Below are positions 1,834 through 17,323 of a stretch of DNA of 17,792 nucleotides, in pieces. The position numbers were made by a program, and so were the translations under genes. The notes beneath the pieces are model-generated. The model made no database searches. It had not been told where the DNA came from and worked only from the letters and a program-made list of their open reading frames with translations. The stretch's first letter is position 1; the number at the start of each line of letters is the position of its first letter. This DNA is from Gemmatimonadota bacterium (GTDB taxonomy: Bacteria; Gemmatimonadota; Gemmatimonadetes; Longimicrobiales; Gaopeijiaceae), in NCBI GenBank assembly GCA_039589315.1, contig JBDHHQ010000089.1, positions 1 to 17,792 on the forward strand. The letters are read 5' to 3'.

Positions 1834-2298
1834 TTATCCTACGGCCTTGGCCACCGCGTCGACGTACTTGTCGACATTCGCGAGCACTTTGACGAGGTCC
1901 TTGCGAGCTTCGGCCGCCGCGATGTCGGAGGCGAAACTGAGGAACTGCGCGCGTACCTCGTCCCGGTCCACGGAGCGTTCGGCAGCCGGCGCCGAAGCCG
2001 GCGCTGCGGTCCGACGGGTGCGTCGGGGCCGACCTGGCTTCCTACCTGCCGCTGCGGCGCGCCGCGTGCGGGGCTTTCTCGGGGCGGCCTTGGCGTCAGG
2101 CTTCTTCTTGGCGCCCGCTCCCGGCTTGCGGCGCTTGATCTGCAGGACGTAACGCGCGTTGAACTGGCGCTTGGTCAGGGGGCCAACGCTCGGGTACTTC
2201 TTTTTCACCTGGTTCTGAAGCTCTTCCGTTGTGGCGGCAGGGTTCTTCTTCAGTGCCGCCTCGACCATGCCCAGGATCTTCTCTTTGTTATCGGCCAC
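1834..2298 (-). CDS. Small Lys/Arg/Ala/Pro-rich protein (154 aa), candidate histone-like nucleoid-associated protein
   Basis: GTG start at 2298 with GAGGAG RBS 9 nt upstream. Helical N-terminal domain (KILGMVEAALKKNP...RQFNARYVLQIKRR), basic low-complexity linker containing RKPGRPRR, amphipathic helical C-terminus. The ORF-track extension to 2499 runs through promoter-like AT-rich DNA. Confidence 0.8.
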   Translation of the reverse strand: MADNKEKILGMVEAALKKNPAATTEELQNQVKKKYPSVGPLTKRQFNARYVLQIKRRKPGAGAKKKPDAKAAPRKPRTRRAAAAGRKPGRPRRTRRTAAPASAPAAERSVDRDEVRAQFLSFASDIAAAEARKDLVKVLANVDKYVDAVAKAVG

Positions 2299-2307
2299 CG
2301 GGGGGAT

Positions 2308-2313
2308 CTCCTC
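2308..2313 (-). promoter_or_regulatory. Shine-Dalgarno site of the basic protein gene
   Basis: + strand ctcctc reads GAGGAG on the minus strand, 9 nt before GTG at 2298. Confidence 0.75.
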
Positions 2314-2343
2314 TCGACTGATTATCTGGAAGCAAGCGTCGCC

Positions 2344-2372
2344 AATAGAACGGCCAGGTGTCGGGTTGTCAA
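2344..2372 (-). promoter_or_regulatory. Putative sigma70-type promoter for the basic protein gene
   Basis: Minus strand TTGACA (2372-2367), 17 nt spacer, TCTATT (2349-2344), inside a conspicuously AT-rich intergenic patch. The -10 box is imperfect. Confidence 0.5.
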
Positions 2373-2726
2373 TTGAGAGCGAATTTACGGCGCACATTGA
2401 TAGTCGACATATTCGCGACGTATTTCGATCGTGCCTCCGCTCCACCTCACCCCCCGCACACGAGGCATAGGCCCGAGTTGGCGCCGAGCATCCGCCCAAT
2501 CATCTTCCGTCGCGGAGCGGACCCCCTCCGGAGGAGTGCACAACCGCCACGCCGCCGTCTGGGTCGGCGGTGCGGACAGGATCGCAACGAAGAGCCGGCC
2601 GCACCGAAGCGGATCGGCTGGACTGGCAGGGCAACTGGCCGGGCCCTATCGTGAATCCCGGCAACCGGCGGGCTCGTAGGGATCGAGCCGCACTGGAACC
2701 GCCCTGAAAGTCGGAGAGGTGGAGAC

Positions 2727-3044
2727 ATGGATCCGGCAGTGATCGACATTCTCGCACCCATGCTGTTCGCCGTCGTTCTGACGCTCACCGTCGGCGGCGT
2801 GATACTCCTGAAGCCCATCTCGGGCAAGATCGGCGATTTGCTCGAGGCCATGGCCGAGGAGCGCAAGAACCCGTCCCTGGCCGCGGAGCTCAACCAGCTC
2901 AGGGGACAGCTCGACACCATGAGCTCGCGAATGGCGTTGCTGGAGGAGCGCCAGGATTTCCATGAGAAGCTCATGGAGTCCCCGAGCCGTCTGCCCGCCA
3001 TCGAGTCCGGCTCCGGGGGGGCGACGGCTCCGCCGACCGGGTAG
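2727..3044 (+). CDS. Small membrane-anchored coiled-coil protein (105 aa), PspB-like architecture
   Basis: GGAG/GAGG RBS before ATG. One hydrophobic segment (ILAPMLFAVVLTLTVGGVILL) followed by a heptad-like helix ELNQLRGQLDTMSSRMALLEERQDFHEKLM. Confidence 0.8.
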   Translation: MDPAVIDILAPMLFAVVLTLTVGGVILLKPISGKIGDLLEAMAEERKNPSLAAELNQLRGQLDTMSSRMALLEERQDFHEKLMESPSRLPAIESGSGGATAPPTG

Positions 3045-3197: not shown

Positions 3198-4031
3198 ATG
3201 TCAAAGACGATCGTGCGCGTGGGAGATGTGGCGTGCGGTGACGATCAACTCTTCCTCATCTCGGGCCCGTGCGTGATCGAGGACGAGACCGTCATGCTCC
3301 GAACGGCCGAGGAGCTGGCGCGGGTGTCCGATGCACTGGACGTGCCCGTCATCTACAAGTCCTCGTTCACCAAGGACAATCGGAGCTCGCTGTCGTATTA
3401 CACGGGCCCGGGCATGGAAGACGGTCTCAGGACGCTGGCCCGGATCCGCGACGAGTTCGGCTTTCCGATACTCTCGGATATCCACCACCCAGACCAGGCG
3501 GCCCCCTCCGGTGAAGTACTGGATGTGATCCAGATACCGGCGTATCTGTGCATGCAGTCCGAGTTGATGGTCGCAGCAGCTCGGACCGGGAGAGCCGTGA
3601 ACATCAAGCACGGCCAGTTCCTCGCGCCGGAAAACATGACCAAGCCGATCCAGAAGTGCCTGGATTCGGGCAATGACCAGGTCATCTTGACCGAGCGAGG
3701 CTACACCTTCGGCTACAACGATCTTATAGTTGACCCGCGGAGCTTCTATCAACTCCAACAGACCGGCTATCCGGTGGTCTTTGACATAACCCACTCGATC
3801 CGCCGCTATGGGATCCCCAGCGCGGACCCCAGCGGAGGGGCCAGGGAGTTCCTACCGACGATTGCCCGAGCCGGCGTCGCGGCGGGTGTGGATGGTGTCT
3901 TCATCGAGACACACCCCGAACCGTCGAGTGCTCTTTGTGATGCCGCGAGCCAGCTCTCCGTATTCGACCTGGAGAGCTTCCTCGTCCCCCTGCTGGAGCT
4001 CCACAGCGTCGAAGTCTTGCACCGTGGGTAG
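3198..4031 (+). CDS. kdsA: 3-deoxy-8-phosphooctulonate (KDO8P) synthase family protein, metal-dependent type, divergent
   Basis: Motifs SGPCVIE, YKSSF.K.NRSS, QIPA.LC.Q, NIK.GQFLAP, TERG.TFGYNDL.VD.R, FD.THS, GG.REF, G.F.ETHPEP..ALCD. The Cys/His/Glu/Asp metal ligands are present. Confidence 0.9.
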   Translation: MSKTIVRVGDVACGDDQLFLISGPCVIEDETVMLRTAEELARVSDALDVPVIYKSSFTKDNRSSLSYYTGPGMEDGLRTLARIRDEFGFPILSDIHHPDQAAPSGEVLDVIQIPAYLCMQSELMVAAARTGRAVNIKHGQFLAPENMTKPIQKCLDSGNDQVILTERGYTFGYNDLIVDPRSFYQLQQTGYPVVFDITHSIRRYGIPSADPSGGAREFLPTIARAGVAAGVDGVFIETHPEPSSALCDAASQLSVFDLESFLVPLLELHSVEVLHRG

Positions 4032-4091: not shown

Positions 4092-5096
4092 ATGGAACTA
4101 TATCTGGACAGCGCCGACCTCGCGGAAATCGAAGAGGCCTTCAAGCTCGGCTTCCTGGATGGCCTCACGACCACACCCACCTTCATGCACCGGCATGGGG
4201 TGACGGACACGGACGGTCTGGTCCTGAGGTTGGCCGAGATCGTTCCCGTTCTTCAGGTGGAGGCGCTGGGCGAGACCGCGGACCAGATCCACGGCGAGGC
4301 TCACCGTCTGCTGGATCTGGGACTGGACCGGGAGCGGACCGTCTTCAAGATCCCCGTCTCACTCGAGGGCGTCCGGGCCTGCAAGATGCTCAGGGACGAG
4401 GACTTCCTGGTGAATGTGCACCTGGTGTATACCCTGCAGCAGGCGTATATGGCCATGCACGCGGGCGCGACCTATGTGTGCCCGCTGGTGGGTCGTCTTC
4501 AGGATCAGGGGCACGACGCCCTCGATCTGGTCCGCCAGATCGTGGACGCGGTGGTATACTACGGGTACGCCACCAAGGTCATGTTCTCGTCGGTGCGACA
4601 TCCCGAGCACGTTCGGAACGCGCTCAACCTCGGCGTCCATACCATCACCGCCCCCTGGCGCGTCCTGGCTCGGCTGACGGAGAACAACTTCACCACGGTG
4701 GGTGCCGACCAGTTCTTCAAGCACACGCGTCTGCTCACCAAGACGGTGGCCGACGTCATGAGCAGCGTGAACCCACTGGTTGACTCGGAGACGACCCTCC
4801 AGGAAGCCATCGTGAAGATGACCGAGTACGGATTCGGATGCGTGACCGTCGTGAACGGAGACGGGAGCCTCTCGGGTGTGTTCACCGACGGGGATCTTCG
4901 TCGATTGCTCGAGAAGAACGGCCGTGAGGTCCTGAGCCGCAGGATGGCCGACCTCGTCTACAACGAGCCCATCAGCGTGGAGGCGGGCACGCTGCTCCAG
5001 CGGGCCGAGGAGCTGTTCCACGAGCACAAGGTGGACAACCTCCTCGTGCTGAGGAACGGGGCCCCGGTGGGGATGTTGGACATCCAGGATCTCTGA
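4092..5096 (+). CDS. Fusion of transaldolase/fructose-6-phosphate-aldolase family barrel (aa 1 to ~216) and KdsD/GutQ-type CBS pair (aa ~217-334)
   Basis: N-terminal MELYLDSA..EI, DGLTTTP, VFKIPVSLEG (Schiff-base Lys86), AGATYV.P.VGR, SSVRHPEHV. C-terminal TVADVM...GVFTDGDLRR...VGMLDIQDL. ATG at 4092 aligns with the family N-terminus. Confidence 0.9.
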   Translation: MELYLDSADLAEIEEAFKLGFLDGLTTTPTFMHRHGVTDTDGLVLRLAEIVPVLQVEALGETADQIHGEAHRLLDLGLDRERTVFKIPVSLEGVRACKMLRDEDFLVNVHLVYTLQQAYMAMHAGATYVCPLVGRLQDQGHDALDLVRQIVDAVVYYGYATKVMFSSVRHPEHVRNALNLGVHTITAPWRVLARLTENNFTTVGADQFFKHTRLLTKTVADVMSSVNPLVDSETTLQEAIVKMTEYGFGCVTVVNGDGSLSGVFTDGDLRRLLEKNGREVLSRRMADLVYNEPISVEAGTLLQRAEELFHEHKVDNLLVLRNGAPVGMLDIQDL

Positions 5097-5199: not shown

Positions 5200-5910
5200 G
5201 TGAGCCTCCGCACAGAGGAGTGGTTCCAGCGGCTCGGCGGGGAGCTTGTCTCACCCCTCGAGGACATTCGCCGGCGCCTTGGGGGGATTCGCGCGTTCGT
5301 ATTCGACTGGGACGGTGTGTTCAACGCCGGCGCCAAGGGGGAAGGTGCGCCCAGCCCGTTCTCCGAGGCCGATTCGATGGGGCAGAACCTGCTCCGCTTC
5401 GGCTGGTGGCTACGCGACGGCGGATCCATGCCTGCTACCGCCGTGCTCACGGGTCAGCACAACCCCTCGGCGGTCCAGTTCGCGCGGCGCGAGCGGTTCC
5501 ACGCCGTGTACCAGGGGTTCCTCGACAAGCGGGTGGCGCTGGAGCACTTCATGGAGACTTCCGGGTTGACCCCACGAAGCGTCGCCTTCTTCTTCGACGA
5601 TGCGCTGGATCTGCCGGTGGCCGAGCGTGTAGGCTTGCGGGTGCTGGTTCGGCGGGCGGCCTCGCCTCTCTTCCAGCGTCATGTCGTCGACGCGGGCGCG
5701 GCGGACTACGTCACCGGCCGCGAGGGCGGGGAGCACGCGGTCCGGGAGGCGGCAGAGCTGCTGCTGGGGCTGTCGGACCTGTATGCACGGGTCATCACGG
5801 AGCGGGCGGCGTTCGGGGACGCGTACGGAGCCTATTTTGCTGAGCGCCAGGGGCAGCCGGTACAAGTGTACCGCTCGAGCGAGGGGGACGTGGAGCCGGT
5901 CGAGGAATGA
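5200..5910 (+). CDS. HAD-superfamily phosphatase, KdsC (KDO8P phosphatase)-like with terminal extensions
   Basis: FDWDGV (motif I), VLTG (motif II), YQG..DK (motif III), FDDALD (motif IV variant) and the KdsC-type tail ADYVT..EGG..AVRE..ELLL. Confidence 0.85.
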   Translation: MSLRTEEWFQRLGGELVSPLEDIRRRLGGIRAFVFDWDGVFNAGAKGEGAPSPFSEADSMGQNLLRFGWWLRDGGSMPATAVLTGQHNPSAVQFARRERFHAVYQGFLDKRVALEHFMETSGLTPRSVAFFFDDALDLPVAERVGLRVLVRRAASPLFQRHVVDAGAADYVTGREGGEHAVREAAELLLGLSDLYARVITERAAFGDAYGAYFAERQGQPVQVYRSSEGDVEPVEE

Positions 5911-15929: not shown

Positions 15930-17323
15930 ATGCGCAGGCTCGCATCCGTCACCCTCGTCCTGGCTGTAATCGCTCTCCCCTCGTCGGTCCGGGCCCAGGA
16001 CACGCCCGACGCGGTGGTGGCTGCGCTGGAGGCCAGGACTGCCCACATGACCGACGTGGCCATGGAGATCTGGCGCCTGGCCGAGCTGGGGTACCTGGAG
16101 GAGAAGAGCTCGGCGCTGCTCCAGTCCGAGCTGGTAGACGCGGGCTTCAGCGTGGACGCCGGCGTAGCGGAGATCCCCACCGCGTTCGTGGCCAGCTGGG
16201 GCAGTGGGGCGCCCGTGATCGGCGTGCTGGCCGAGTTCGACGCGCTACCCGGGATCAACCAGGATGCCGTGCCGACCAGGCAGCCCATCGAGGGGAAACA
16301 CGCCGGACACGCCTGCGGCCACCACCTCTTCGGGACCGCCTCCACCCACGCGGCCATCGCCGCGAAGCAGTGGCTGGAGGCCACAGGCTCGTCGGGCACG
16401 ATCCGCCTTTACGGCACGCCGGCCGAGGAGGGTGGGTCGGGGAAGGTCTACATGGCCCGGGCGGGGTTGTTCGATGACGTGGACGCGGTCATCTCGTGGC
16501 ACGCCGGCGACCGCAACTACGCGGGGCCGAACACGAACCTGGCGGTGAAGTCGGCCAAGTTCCGCTTCCACGGCGTCTCGGCCCACGCCGCCGCGCCATG
16601 GTCAACATGCTCCGGGAGCATGTCCCGCAGGAGACGCGCATCCACTACGTCATCACCGCCGGTGGCAACGCTCCCAACGTGGTGCCCGACTTCGCCGAGG
16701 TCTACTACTACGTCCGAAATCCCGAGCCCGAGATGGTGAAGGCCATCTTCGACCGGGTGGTGACCGCGGCGGAGGGTGCCGCCCTGGGGACCGGCACCGA
16801 CATGGAGCTCGAGATCATCGCGGGTGCCTACAACCGTCTGCCCAACGTGGCGCTCCAGGAGGTGATGCACAGGAGCCTCGAGCGGGTCGGTGGCGTGGAG
16901 TACGACGAGCGCGAGCGGGAGTTCGCCCGGACGATCCAATCCTCCTTCCCGGATCCGCCGCCCCTGGACCAGGCCTGGGTCATCCAGCCCTTCGAGTTTC
17001 GTCAGACATACGCCTCGGCCGATACGGGGGACATCACGTGGCTCGTGCCCTCAGCCAACCTGAGCACGGCAACCTGGGTGCCGGGCACGTCGGCGCACTC
17101 GTGGCAGGCCATCGCCTCGGGGGGGATGAGCATCGGCGCAAAGGGGATGATGGTGGCCGCCAAGACGCTGGCGCTGACCGCCATCGACCTGTTCAGCACC
17201 CCCGACGTGATCGCGGCGGCACAGAGCGAATTCGACGAACGGCGGGGCTCGGACTTCGTCTATGAGGCCCTCCTGGGCGACAGGGATCCGCCGCTGGACT
17301 ACCGGGCCAGCGTCGCCCGGTAG
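15930..17323 (+). pseudogene. M20-family amidohydrolase (AbgB-like) with Sec signal peptide, split by an out-of-frame internal deletion near 16597
   Basis: Frame 1 (from 15930, GGAGG RBS): ELGY.E.KSS, IPTAFVA, LAEFDALPG, HACGHHL.G, GTPAEEGG.GKVYM, WH, FHGVSAHAAAP. Frame 2 (from 16598): MVNMLREHVP...RIHYVIT.GG.APNVVP, S.D.GD.TW.VP, PGT.AHSWQ. The intervening GRSALD segment is absent. Confidence 0.85.

Follow-up and report, generated by a model that had tools for sequence, protein, structure and literature searches.

Kdo is the sugar by which lipid A is linked with the remaining lipopolysaccharide (LPS), and its synthesis is considered to begin with KdsD. The window analysed here, a stretch of 17,792 nucleotides from a Gemmatimonadota bacterium, carries between kdsA and a kdsC-like gene a gene for a protein of 334 amino acids (4092-5096, forward strand), in which a small-transaldolase barrel is fused to a KdsD-type CBS pair. 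In the genome to which the window belongs (95% complete), we found no SIS part of KdsD; kdsB, waaA and an ordinary transaldolase are present, and kdnA/kdnB, kdsB and waaA lie on contigs other than that of the window. The question raised by this locus is which step of Kdo synthesis such a fusion protein serves, and by which reaction.

The fusion combines a rebuilt transaldolase barrel with a KdsD-type CBS pair

Residues 1-212 (4092..4727, +) form a barrel of the small transaldolase/FSA type with a rebuilt active site, and residues 213-334 together with the stop codon (4728..5096, +) correspond to the CBS pair, as assigned from profile and PDB matches and from a tree. The original prediction had placed the transaldolase barrel at 4092..4598; this is correct as far as residues 1-169, but the gene continues to 5096 and includes the CBS pair, which that range left out. 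The translation of 4092-5096 contains D6, T26-T27-T28-P29-T30, E57, K86, N108-V-H110-L, Y128-V-C130-P-L132-V-G-R135, S167 and R169, and thereby all residues that had been predicted as kept or substituted (codons: T28, 4173-4175; E57, 4260-4262; K86, 4347-4349; H110, 4419-4421; C130, 4479-4481; L132, 4485-4487; R169, 4596-4598). Alignments to the T. acidophilum transaldolase (PDB 3s0c; N28, S58, E60, K86, N108, T110, S130, F132, R135, S167, R169) and to E. coli FsaA (N28, F57, Q59, L107, T109, A129, Y131) likewise bore out the reference residues used in that prediction.

With the fold of the barrel and a Schiff-base Lys on strand 4, the fusion belongs to the Transaldolase/FSA superfamily (PF00923), and its database homologues are named transaldolase or FSA. 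Its scores are 152.1 bits against a cut-off of 245.95 for small transaldolases (TIGR00875) and 87.9 against 306 bits for FSA (NF009296). The window has T, H, C and L where small transaldolases have Asn28, Thr110, Ser130 and Phe132, and E57, N108, C130 and L132 where FSA has Gln59, Leu107, Ala129 and Tyr131; thus, the protein is indeed neither a canonical transaldolase nor an FSA, as had been proposed. As compared to the small decameric transaldolases (T. acidophilum 3s0c, T. maritima 1vpx, B. subtilis 3r8r; TIGR00875), it shares the fold and Lys86 but carries the exchanges N28T, S58Q, T110H, S130C, F132L and A166S, adds a C-terminal CBS pair, scores below the family cut-off and is tied to Kdo genes. 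It resembles FsaA/FsaB (E. coli, 1l6w) in the fold, the Schiff-base Lys, the lack of a Ser at position 129/130 and the large size of the residue at 57/58, whereas Glu replaces Gln59, Leu replaces Tyr131, Asn replaces Leu107, His replaces Thr109 and Thr replaces Asn28.

To the CBS-fused clade as a whole these substitutions are common property: among 316 distinct intact sequences with a barrel identity of at least 60% (four degenerate rows were kept separate and one truncated row was dropped), T28, C130 and L132 are found in 316/316 and H110 in 315/316, and in the best 120 homologues (67-97% identical) each of the four occurs in 120/120. This fixation excludes drift or sequencing error as their source. 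D6, E57, K86, N108, R135, S167 and R169 are each retained in 316/316, that is, both the Glu acid/base (Glu60, corresponding to E57) and the Arg/Ser/Arg phosphate site (R135, S167, R169) are kept. Further fixed changes, beyond those originally noted, are S58 to Q55 (312/316) and L to M164, A/V to F165 and A to S166 (316/316 each). In a control set of 31 ordinary small transaldolases, chosen by length and identity from fusion-bearing genomes (30) and from the window's own genome (one), N28, S58, T110, S130 and F132 are present in 31/31. By its residues and domains, the fusion is a member of the superfamily that stands outside transaldolase, FSA and KdsD, and it likely has a new function. The family comprises 3539 database clusters at E<=1e-100. 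In a literature collection with few subscription journals, we found no account of the fusion, of KdsA with KDNRS or of a 2-epimerase acting on A5P.

KdsD is described as a protein of one SIS domain and two CBS domains (PMC10448790). The best CBS matches of the fusion are KpsF/KdsD/GutQ models and PDB 4o9k. A profile of the fusion CBS pair gave 27.6-68 bits with the CBS pairs of KdsD and at most 26 bits with other CBS proteins, and in a quick tree the fusion pair nests, on a long branch, within those of KdsD (SH-aLRT 97). TIGR00393 matches the fusion only at model positions 152-259, residues 1-212 being transaldolase barrel without SIS. By these relationships the CBS pair of the fusion is derived from KdsD, and it is likely regulatory, exerting feedback control that would probably be mediated by CMP-Kdo.

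The fusion gene lies beside a variant kdsA in Kdo gene clusters

The kdsA gene of the window (3198..4031, +) is the only one of its genome (one match over the cut-off) and exceeds the cut-offs of both TIGR01362 (324 versus 314) and NF003543 (335.7 versus 242 bits). Aligned to KdsA of A. aeolicus and E. coli, its product keeps the metal and PEP residues C25, K54, K59, K137, R167, H199, E237 and D248, but differs from ordinary KdsA by KDNRS for KANRS, PAYLCM for PAFLCR, Arg202 for Gln and a remodelled loop after residue 202. That is, it has neither the KANR(S/T) motif nor the Arg of PAFLxR, which is M119 here. We take the KANR(S/T) motif, the Arg of PAFLxR and position 202 to be the positions at which KdsA binds the aldose phosphate, arabinose-5-phosphate (A5P). 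Among 150 distinct KdsA sequences, 125 have D60/(M or Q)119/R202 and 24 have A/R/Q, none is mixed, and in one the motif lies beyond the matched stretch; KDNRG occurs in nine of the 150. In a quick tree of 44 rows, a branch with an SH-aLRT of 97 sets this 'KD' type of KdsA apart from the other sequences. On the other side of the fusion gene, at 5200..5910 (+), lies a divergent kdsC-like gene for a HAD phosphatase with a DWDGVFN motif, whose best match, KdsC (NF007019), reaches 58 bits against a cut-off of 208. This phosphatase belongs to a divergent, longer clade of its own with invariant MG.N.LR and Y..Y...R motifs.

In a survey of 81 loci (80 loci and the window), we found kdsA in 74 and kdsC-like genes in 66. 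Fifty loci encode an iron alcohol dehydrogenase and 47 a DegT aminotransferase; kdsB and waaA are present in 27 and 19, respectively. The gene order across loci is waaA-kdnA-kdnB-kdsA-fusion-kdsC-kdsB. The dehydrogenase and the aminotransferase are close to Shewanella KdnB (PDB 5k8c, E 1.5e-124) and KdnA (5k8b, E 1.5e-130), respectively, which convert Kdo to Kdo8N (PMC4402001). The presence of KdnA/KdnB orthologues in the clusters points to true Kdo as the product. An obligate link of the fusion to Kdo8N was rejected, as KdnB orthologues occur in 24/44 fusion genomes and in 7/152 KdsD genomes of the class sample described below. No co-substrate gene is conserved across the 81 loci, and transketolase is absent among their labelled conserved neighbours. 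Orthologues of kdnA/kdnB are located at 20462-22891 of contig C50 in the window's own genome and in many Bacteroidota loci. At locus L211, a single open frame (1468-2883) matches ordinary KdsA and KdsC and is possibly a KdsA-KdsC fusion. A database protein of 584 amino acids, P0155, that joins KdsA to the fusion was discarded as a likely frameshift artefact, its KdsA part turning into unrelated sequence before the barrel.

The fusion probably takes the place of KdsD in most genomes that carry it

To place the fusion among genomes, we used a sample of 251 genomes of the class Bacteroidia, which are mostly incomplete and related, and a threshold of E<=1e-23 for KdsD/SIS matches. The fusion is present in 44 genomes, a KdsD/SIS match in 152, and both in 0. 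The Fisher p of 1e-21 for this exclusion is overstated, the genomes being related and mostly incomplete, and the counts likewise overstate the number of independent events among kin. Leaving out the KdsD genomes G287 and G365 (150/205) does not change the result. No KdsA match (E<=1e-45) was obtained in 61/251 genomes. The 190 KdsA-bearing genomes comprise 149 with ordinary KdsA and KdsD, 40 with KD-type KdsA and the fusion, and one with neither combination; KD-type KdsA occurs in 40/44 fusion genomes but in 0/152 KdsD genomes. In 12 of the 40, coordinates place KD-type kdsA and the fusion gene on different contigs. Hence, about one in five KdsA-bearing genomes of the class (40/190) is without KdsD and has instead the fusion and a KdsA of different aldose-binding motif.

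Of 50 fusion-bearing genomes (the first 50 among the genomes of the 80 loci), five also have an SIS part, three of them together with an ordinary KANRS/T KdsA, and genome G038 has KdsD with only a KD-type KdsA. Among 150 other genomes of the window's phylum, KdsD was detected in 116 and the fusion in none; of the 30 nearest relatives, 23 have KdsD, six have neither, and the congener alone yields a CBS-only match. The fusion cassette is therefore patchy in this phylum and was probably acquired.

The fusion shares with KdsD, KpsF and GutQ (SIS plus CBS pair) the CBS pair, the location in Kdo clusters and, as we infer, the pathway step, but it has no SIS domain, its catalytic fold is unrelated and its distribution is complementary (KdsD in 0/44 genomes with the fusion versus 152/207 without). 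Since KdsD is missing where the fusion occurs and the fusion travels together with a special KdsA, it probably supplies A5P for Kdo in place of KdsD. The placement at the A5P step, which had been presumed in the original prediction, is thus supported as far as gene context and genome distribution are concerned. A housekeeping transaldolase role can be rejected, as the window's genome and 43/44 fusion genomes have a separate transaldolase over the cut-off. If the role holds, a pathway hole would be filled across Bacteroidota, Gemmatimonadota and deltaproteobacterial lineages. Among the fusion carriers, we found no cultured one of known LPS structure.

Cys130 also occurs in unfused barrels next to KD-type KdsA

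A search with the window KdsA against 201 genomes of the phylum of genome G003 returned seven fusion-type and eight weaker matches. Seven of the eight weaker matches are also of the D-type, and five of these adjoin an unfused transaldolase; five fusion genomes of this phylum have no KdsD. The unfused transaldolase is near-canonical, keeping N28, E57, T110 and F132 and differing by S130C and S58N. In 140 unfused sequences, i.e. the 120 best database matches (81-99% identical, not chosen by motif) and 20 chosen by C130, after removal of 11 misfiled fused rows, N28, N58, T110, C130 and F132 are each present in 140/140. Among close metagenome loci, kdsA lies in the locus in 10/14 with C130, as compared to 0/66 other loci. 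At loci L214-L218 and L368-L372, the S130C/S58N transaldolase gene lies beside a KDNRS/KDNRG kdsA, and several loci of the unfused module are found downstream of hisB-hisH-like genes.

The two kinds of KdsA-linked barrel, fused and unfused, thus have the Cys130 change in common, and His110 need not be present. The original prediction had cast a His/Cys pair as the catalytic novelty; as an obligatory pair it does not hold, since the unfused barrels next to KD-type KdsA combine C130 with N28, T110 and F132. Position 58 carries an amide in both forms (Q in fused, N in unfused barrels). Genomes with the unfused module have a full KdsD in 10/10 cases, a second transaldolase in 7/7 and, where tested, only D-type KdsA (5/5); with KdsD retained, a second A5P source looks redundant there. 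In 5/10 cases, the residue of their KdsD that corresponds to E. coli His88 is Asn, versus His in 26/26 others; the H88N variants belong to loci L355, L356 and L377-L379. Fused and unfused barrels were joined in 0/200 bootstrap trees (two trait columns dropped), the fused branch being very long, and AU tests did not reject their joint origin (p 0.58 and p 0.43).

Barrels have decayed in four genomes without KdsA

Four fusion genomes (G299, G333, G416 and G442) are without KdsA. Their Lys86 is replaced by R, R, R and S, respectively, and H110, C130 and L132 are lost in 4/4, with the CBS motif still present. These genomes have kdsB and waaA over the cut-offs and gave no kdsA and no kdsD match; a divergent KdsA was considered and rejected, the weak matches being DAHP synthase-type proteins with KPRT/KPRS. 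As the four loci (L152-L155) share one neighbourhood, the decay was probably a single event.

Reactions by which the fusion may supply A5P

Regarding the chemistry, our preference is a tentative one, held with less than even confidence: the fusion may be a ribose-5-phosphate (R5P)/A5P 2-epimerase that acts via a Lys86 aldimine. R135/S167/R169 would bind the phosphate of open-chain R5P, whose C1 aldehyde would form an imine with Lys86. Such an imine at C1 of an aldose is suggested by the larger side chains at positions 58, 110 and 130 round the C1 pocket. A5P equals fructose-6-phosphate minus C1, also in its configuration, so that its chain length would fit the barrel, and the vacated C1 pocket would be occupied by the exchanges S58 to Q, S130 to C and T110 to H. 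The imine would acidify H-C2, Glu57 or His110 would take the proton, and Cys130 on the opposite face would return one, thereby inverting C2; hydrolysis would then release A5P to the partner KdsA. The placement of H110 and C130 on opposite faces is suggested by the alternation of residues along a beta-strand and by known structures. According to this scheme, Cys130 would be the new acid/base, and His110, T28 and L132 would represent later tuning, with C-C cleavage dropped.

Inversion at C2 of R5P is preferred because, given an aldimine, it leads most simply from a common metabolite to A5P and needs no co-substrate. Retention of K86, E57, D6 and the phosphate site in 316/316 sequences and the lack of a conserved co-substrate gene speak for it. 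To our knowledge, there is no natural aldose 2-epimerase that employs a Lys imine; if the chemistry is true, it would be a new reaction on a class I aldolase scaffold, useful for rare aldose phosphates. By its title, PDB entry 3upb shows a transaldolase to which A5P is covalently bound, and PMC3962226 reports that the residue at FSA 129/TalB 176, the position of C130, governs whether dihydroxyacetone or a less polar donor is preferred. A two-carbon donor had originally been suggested as an alternative; a pocket that takes such a unit or an aldose accounts better for the residue changes than does Schiff-base isomerisation of Ru5P. However, the complete C-C cleavage set of the unfused barrels (N28, E57, T110, F132) fits a transfer reaction equally well, and the epimerase leaves the changed aldose-binding loops of KdsA and the KdsD beside the unfused barrel unaccounted for, which are the main results against it. 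Taken as a whole, the fusion might represent a widespread second entrance to Kdo, in which a lysine-imine R5P/A5P 2-epimerase under KdsD's CBS regulator works only with a co-evolved KdsA clade, and of which an intermediate stage (unfused Cys130 barrel plus KdsD) and a decayed stage (Lys86 lost, KdsA gone) survive; this composite picture is speculative to a similar degree.

The fusion could instead be a direct analogue of KdsD that converts Ru5P to A5P non-covalently via an enediol, with Cys130 or His110 as base and Lys86 only polarising the carbonyl. RpiB and KdsD are examples of enzymes with a Cys or a His base. It holds KdsD's place and CBS pair, and the loss of N28, T110 and F132 in the fused clade argues against aldol chemistry. 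However, the Schiff-base set D6/E57/K86/N108 is kept in 316/316 sequences, and there is an unfused form without the His that stands alongside KdsD in 10/10 genomes, which makes this reading rather unlikely. Covalent isomerisation of Ru5P, as originally envisaged, is chemically improbable by our reasoning: a C2 imine of Ru5P cannot yield A5P, since the C2 oxygen is lost and the sugar would end as a Lys-bound amino sugar, a dead end, so that isomerisation would be workable only non-covalently.

The cleavage residues N28, E57, T110 and F132 of the unfused barrels would instead suit a specialised transaldolase that converts D-glycero-D-ido-octulose-8-phosphate and G3P to A5P and F6P, as in the proposed L-type pentose phosphate pathway; A166 is moreover changed to S, where an inverted acceptor hydroxyl could sit. 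The octulose phosphate would derive from glucose-6-phosphate by transketolase, but the conserved neighbours that carry a label include no such enzyme. PMC4470864 lists A5P and ido-octulose phosphate as intermediates of the L-type pathway, for which confirmation is limited. Moreover, N28, T110, S130 and F132 are gone from the fused clade, and both clades show changes in the pocket for the C1 hydroxyl. We therefore regard this transaldolase as improbable.

Equally improbable, in our estimate, is that the aldose phosphate consumed by KD-type KdsA is not free A5P but another one, which the fusion would make or hand over, so that the product may be an isomer or homologue of Kdo. In the unfused clade, such an enzyme and KdsD would act consecutively; the genomes of that clade keep KdsD, with the H88N exchange in 5/10 as compared to His in 26/26 others. 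The joint change of three aldose-site positions of KdsA (125 versus 24 of 150 sequences) and the separation of the KD type from the rest by a branch with an SH-aLRT of 97 are in favour as well. On the other hand, N61, R62 and the five-residue spacing of the KdsA motif are kept, the three changes could amount to one compensating swap with R202 replacing the lost Arg, the KdsB, WaaA and KdnA/KdnB orthologues point to Kdo, and G038 combines KdsD with only a KD-type KdsA.

FSA can make A5P from glycolaldehyde and G3P. The same product could arise in the fusion through an A5P aldolase or two-carbon transferase that joins G3P to glycolaldehyde, either free or from an aldose donor; the filled C1 pocket suits a two-carbon unit, and His110 with L132 could protonate the enamine like Tyr131 of FSA. 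This is quite doubtful, however, as no glycolaldehyde source is conserved in the 81 loci, Q59 and Y131 of FSA are absent, and N28, invariant in the transaldolases and FSA compared here, is lost. Finally, an ordinary F6P/E4P transaldolase with drifted substitutions, to which the fold, Lys86 and the database labels would point, is scarcely credible in view of the fixation of the substitutions (315-316/316), the other transaldolase in 43/44 genomes and the strict link to KdsA type and KdsD absence.

Other features of the window

A promoter scan gave 0 sigma-70-like sites, and two terminator-like sites were found versus 1.2 expected, an uninformative outcome. At 15930-17323, an M20-family peptidase is divided between two frames that overlap (15930-16739 and 16496-17323), which probably reflects a frameshift. 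The open reading frames at 1834-2499 (-) and 2727-3044 (+) have no Pfam match; the former encodes a Lys/Ala/Arg-rich product that may be a histone-like DNA-binding protein.
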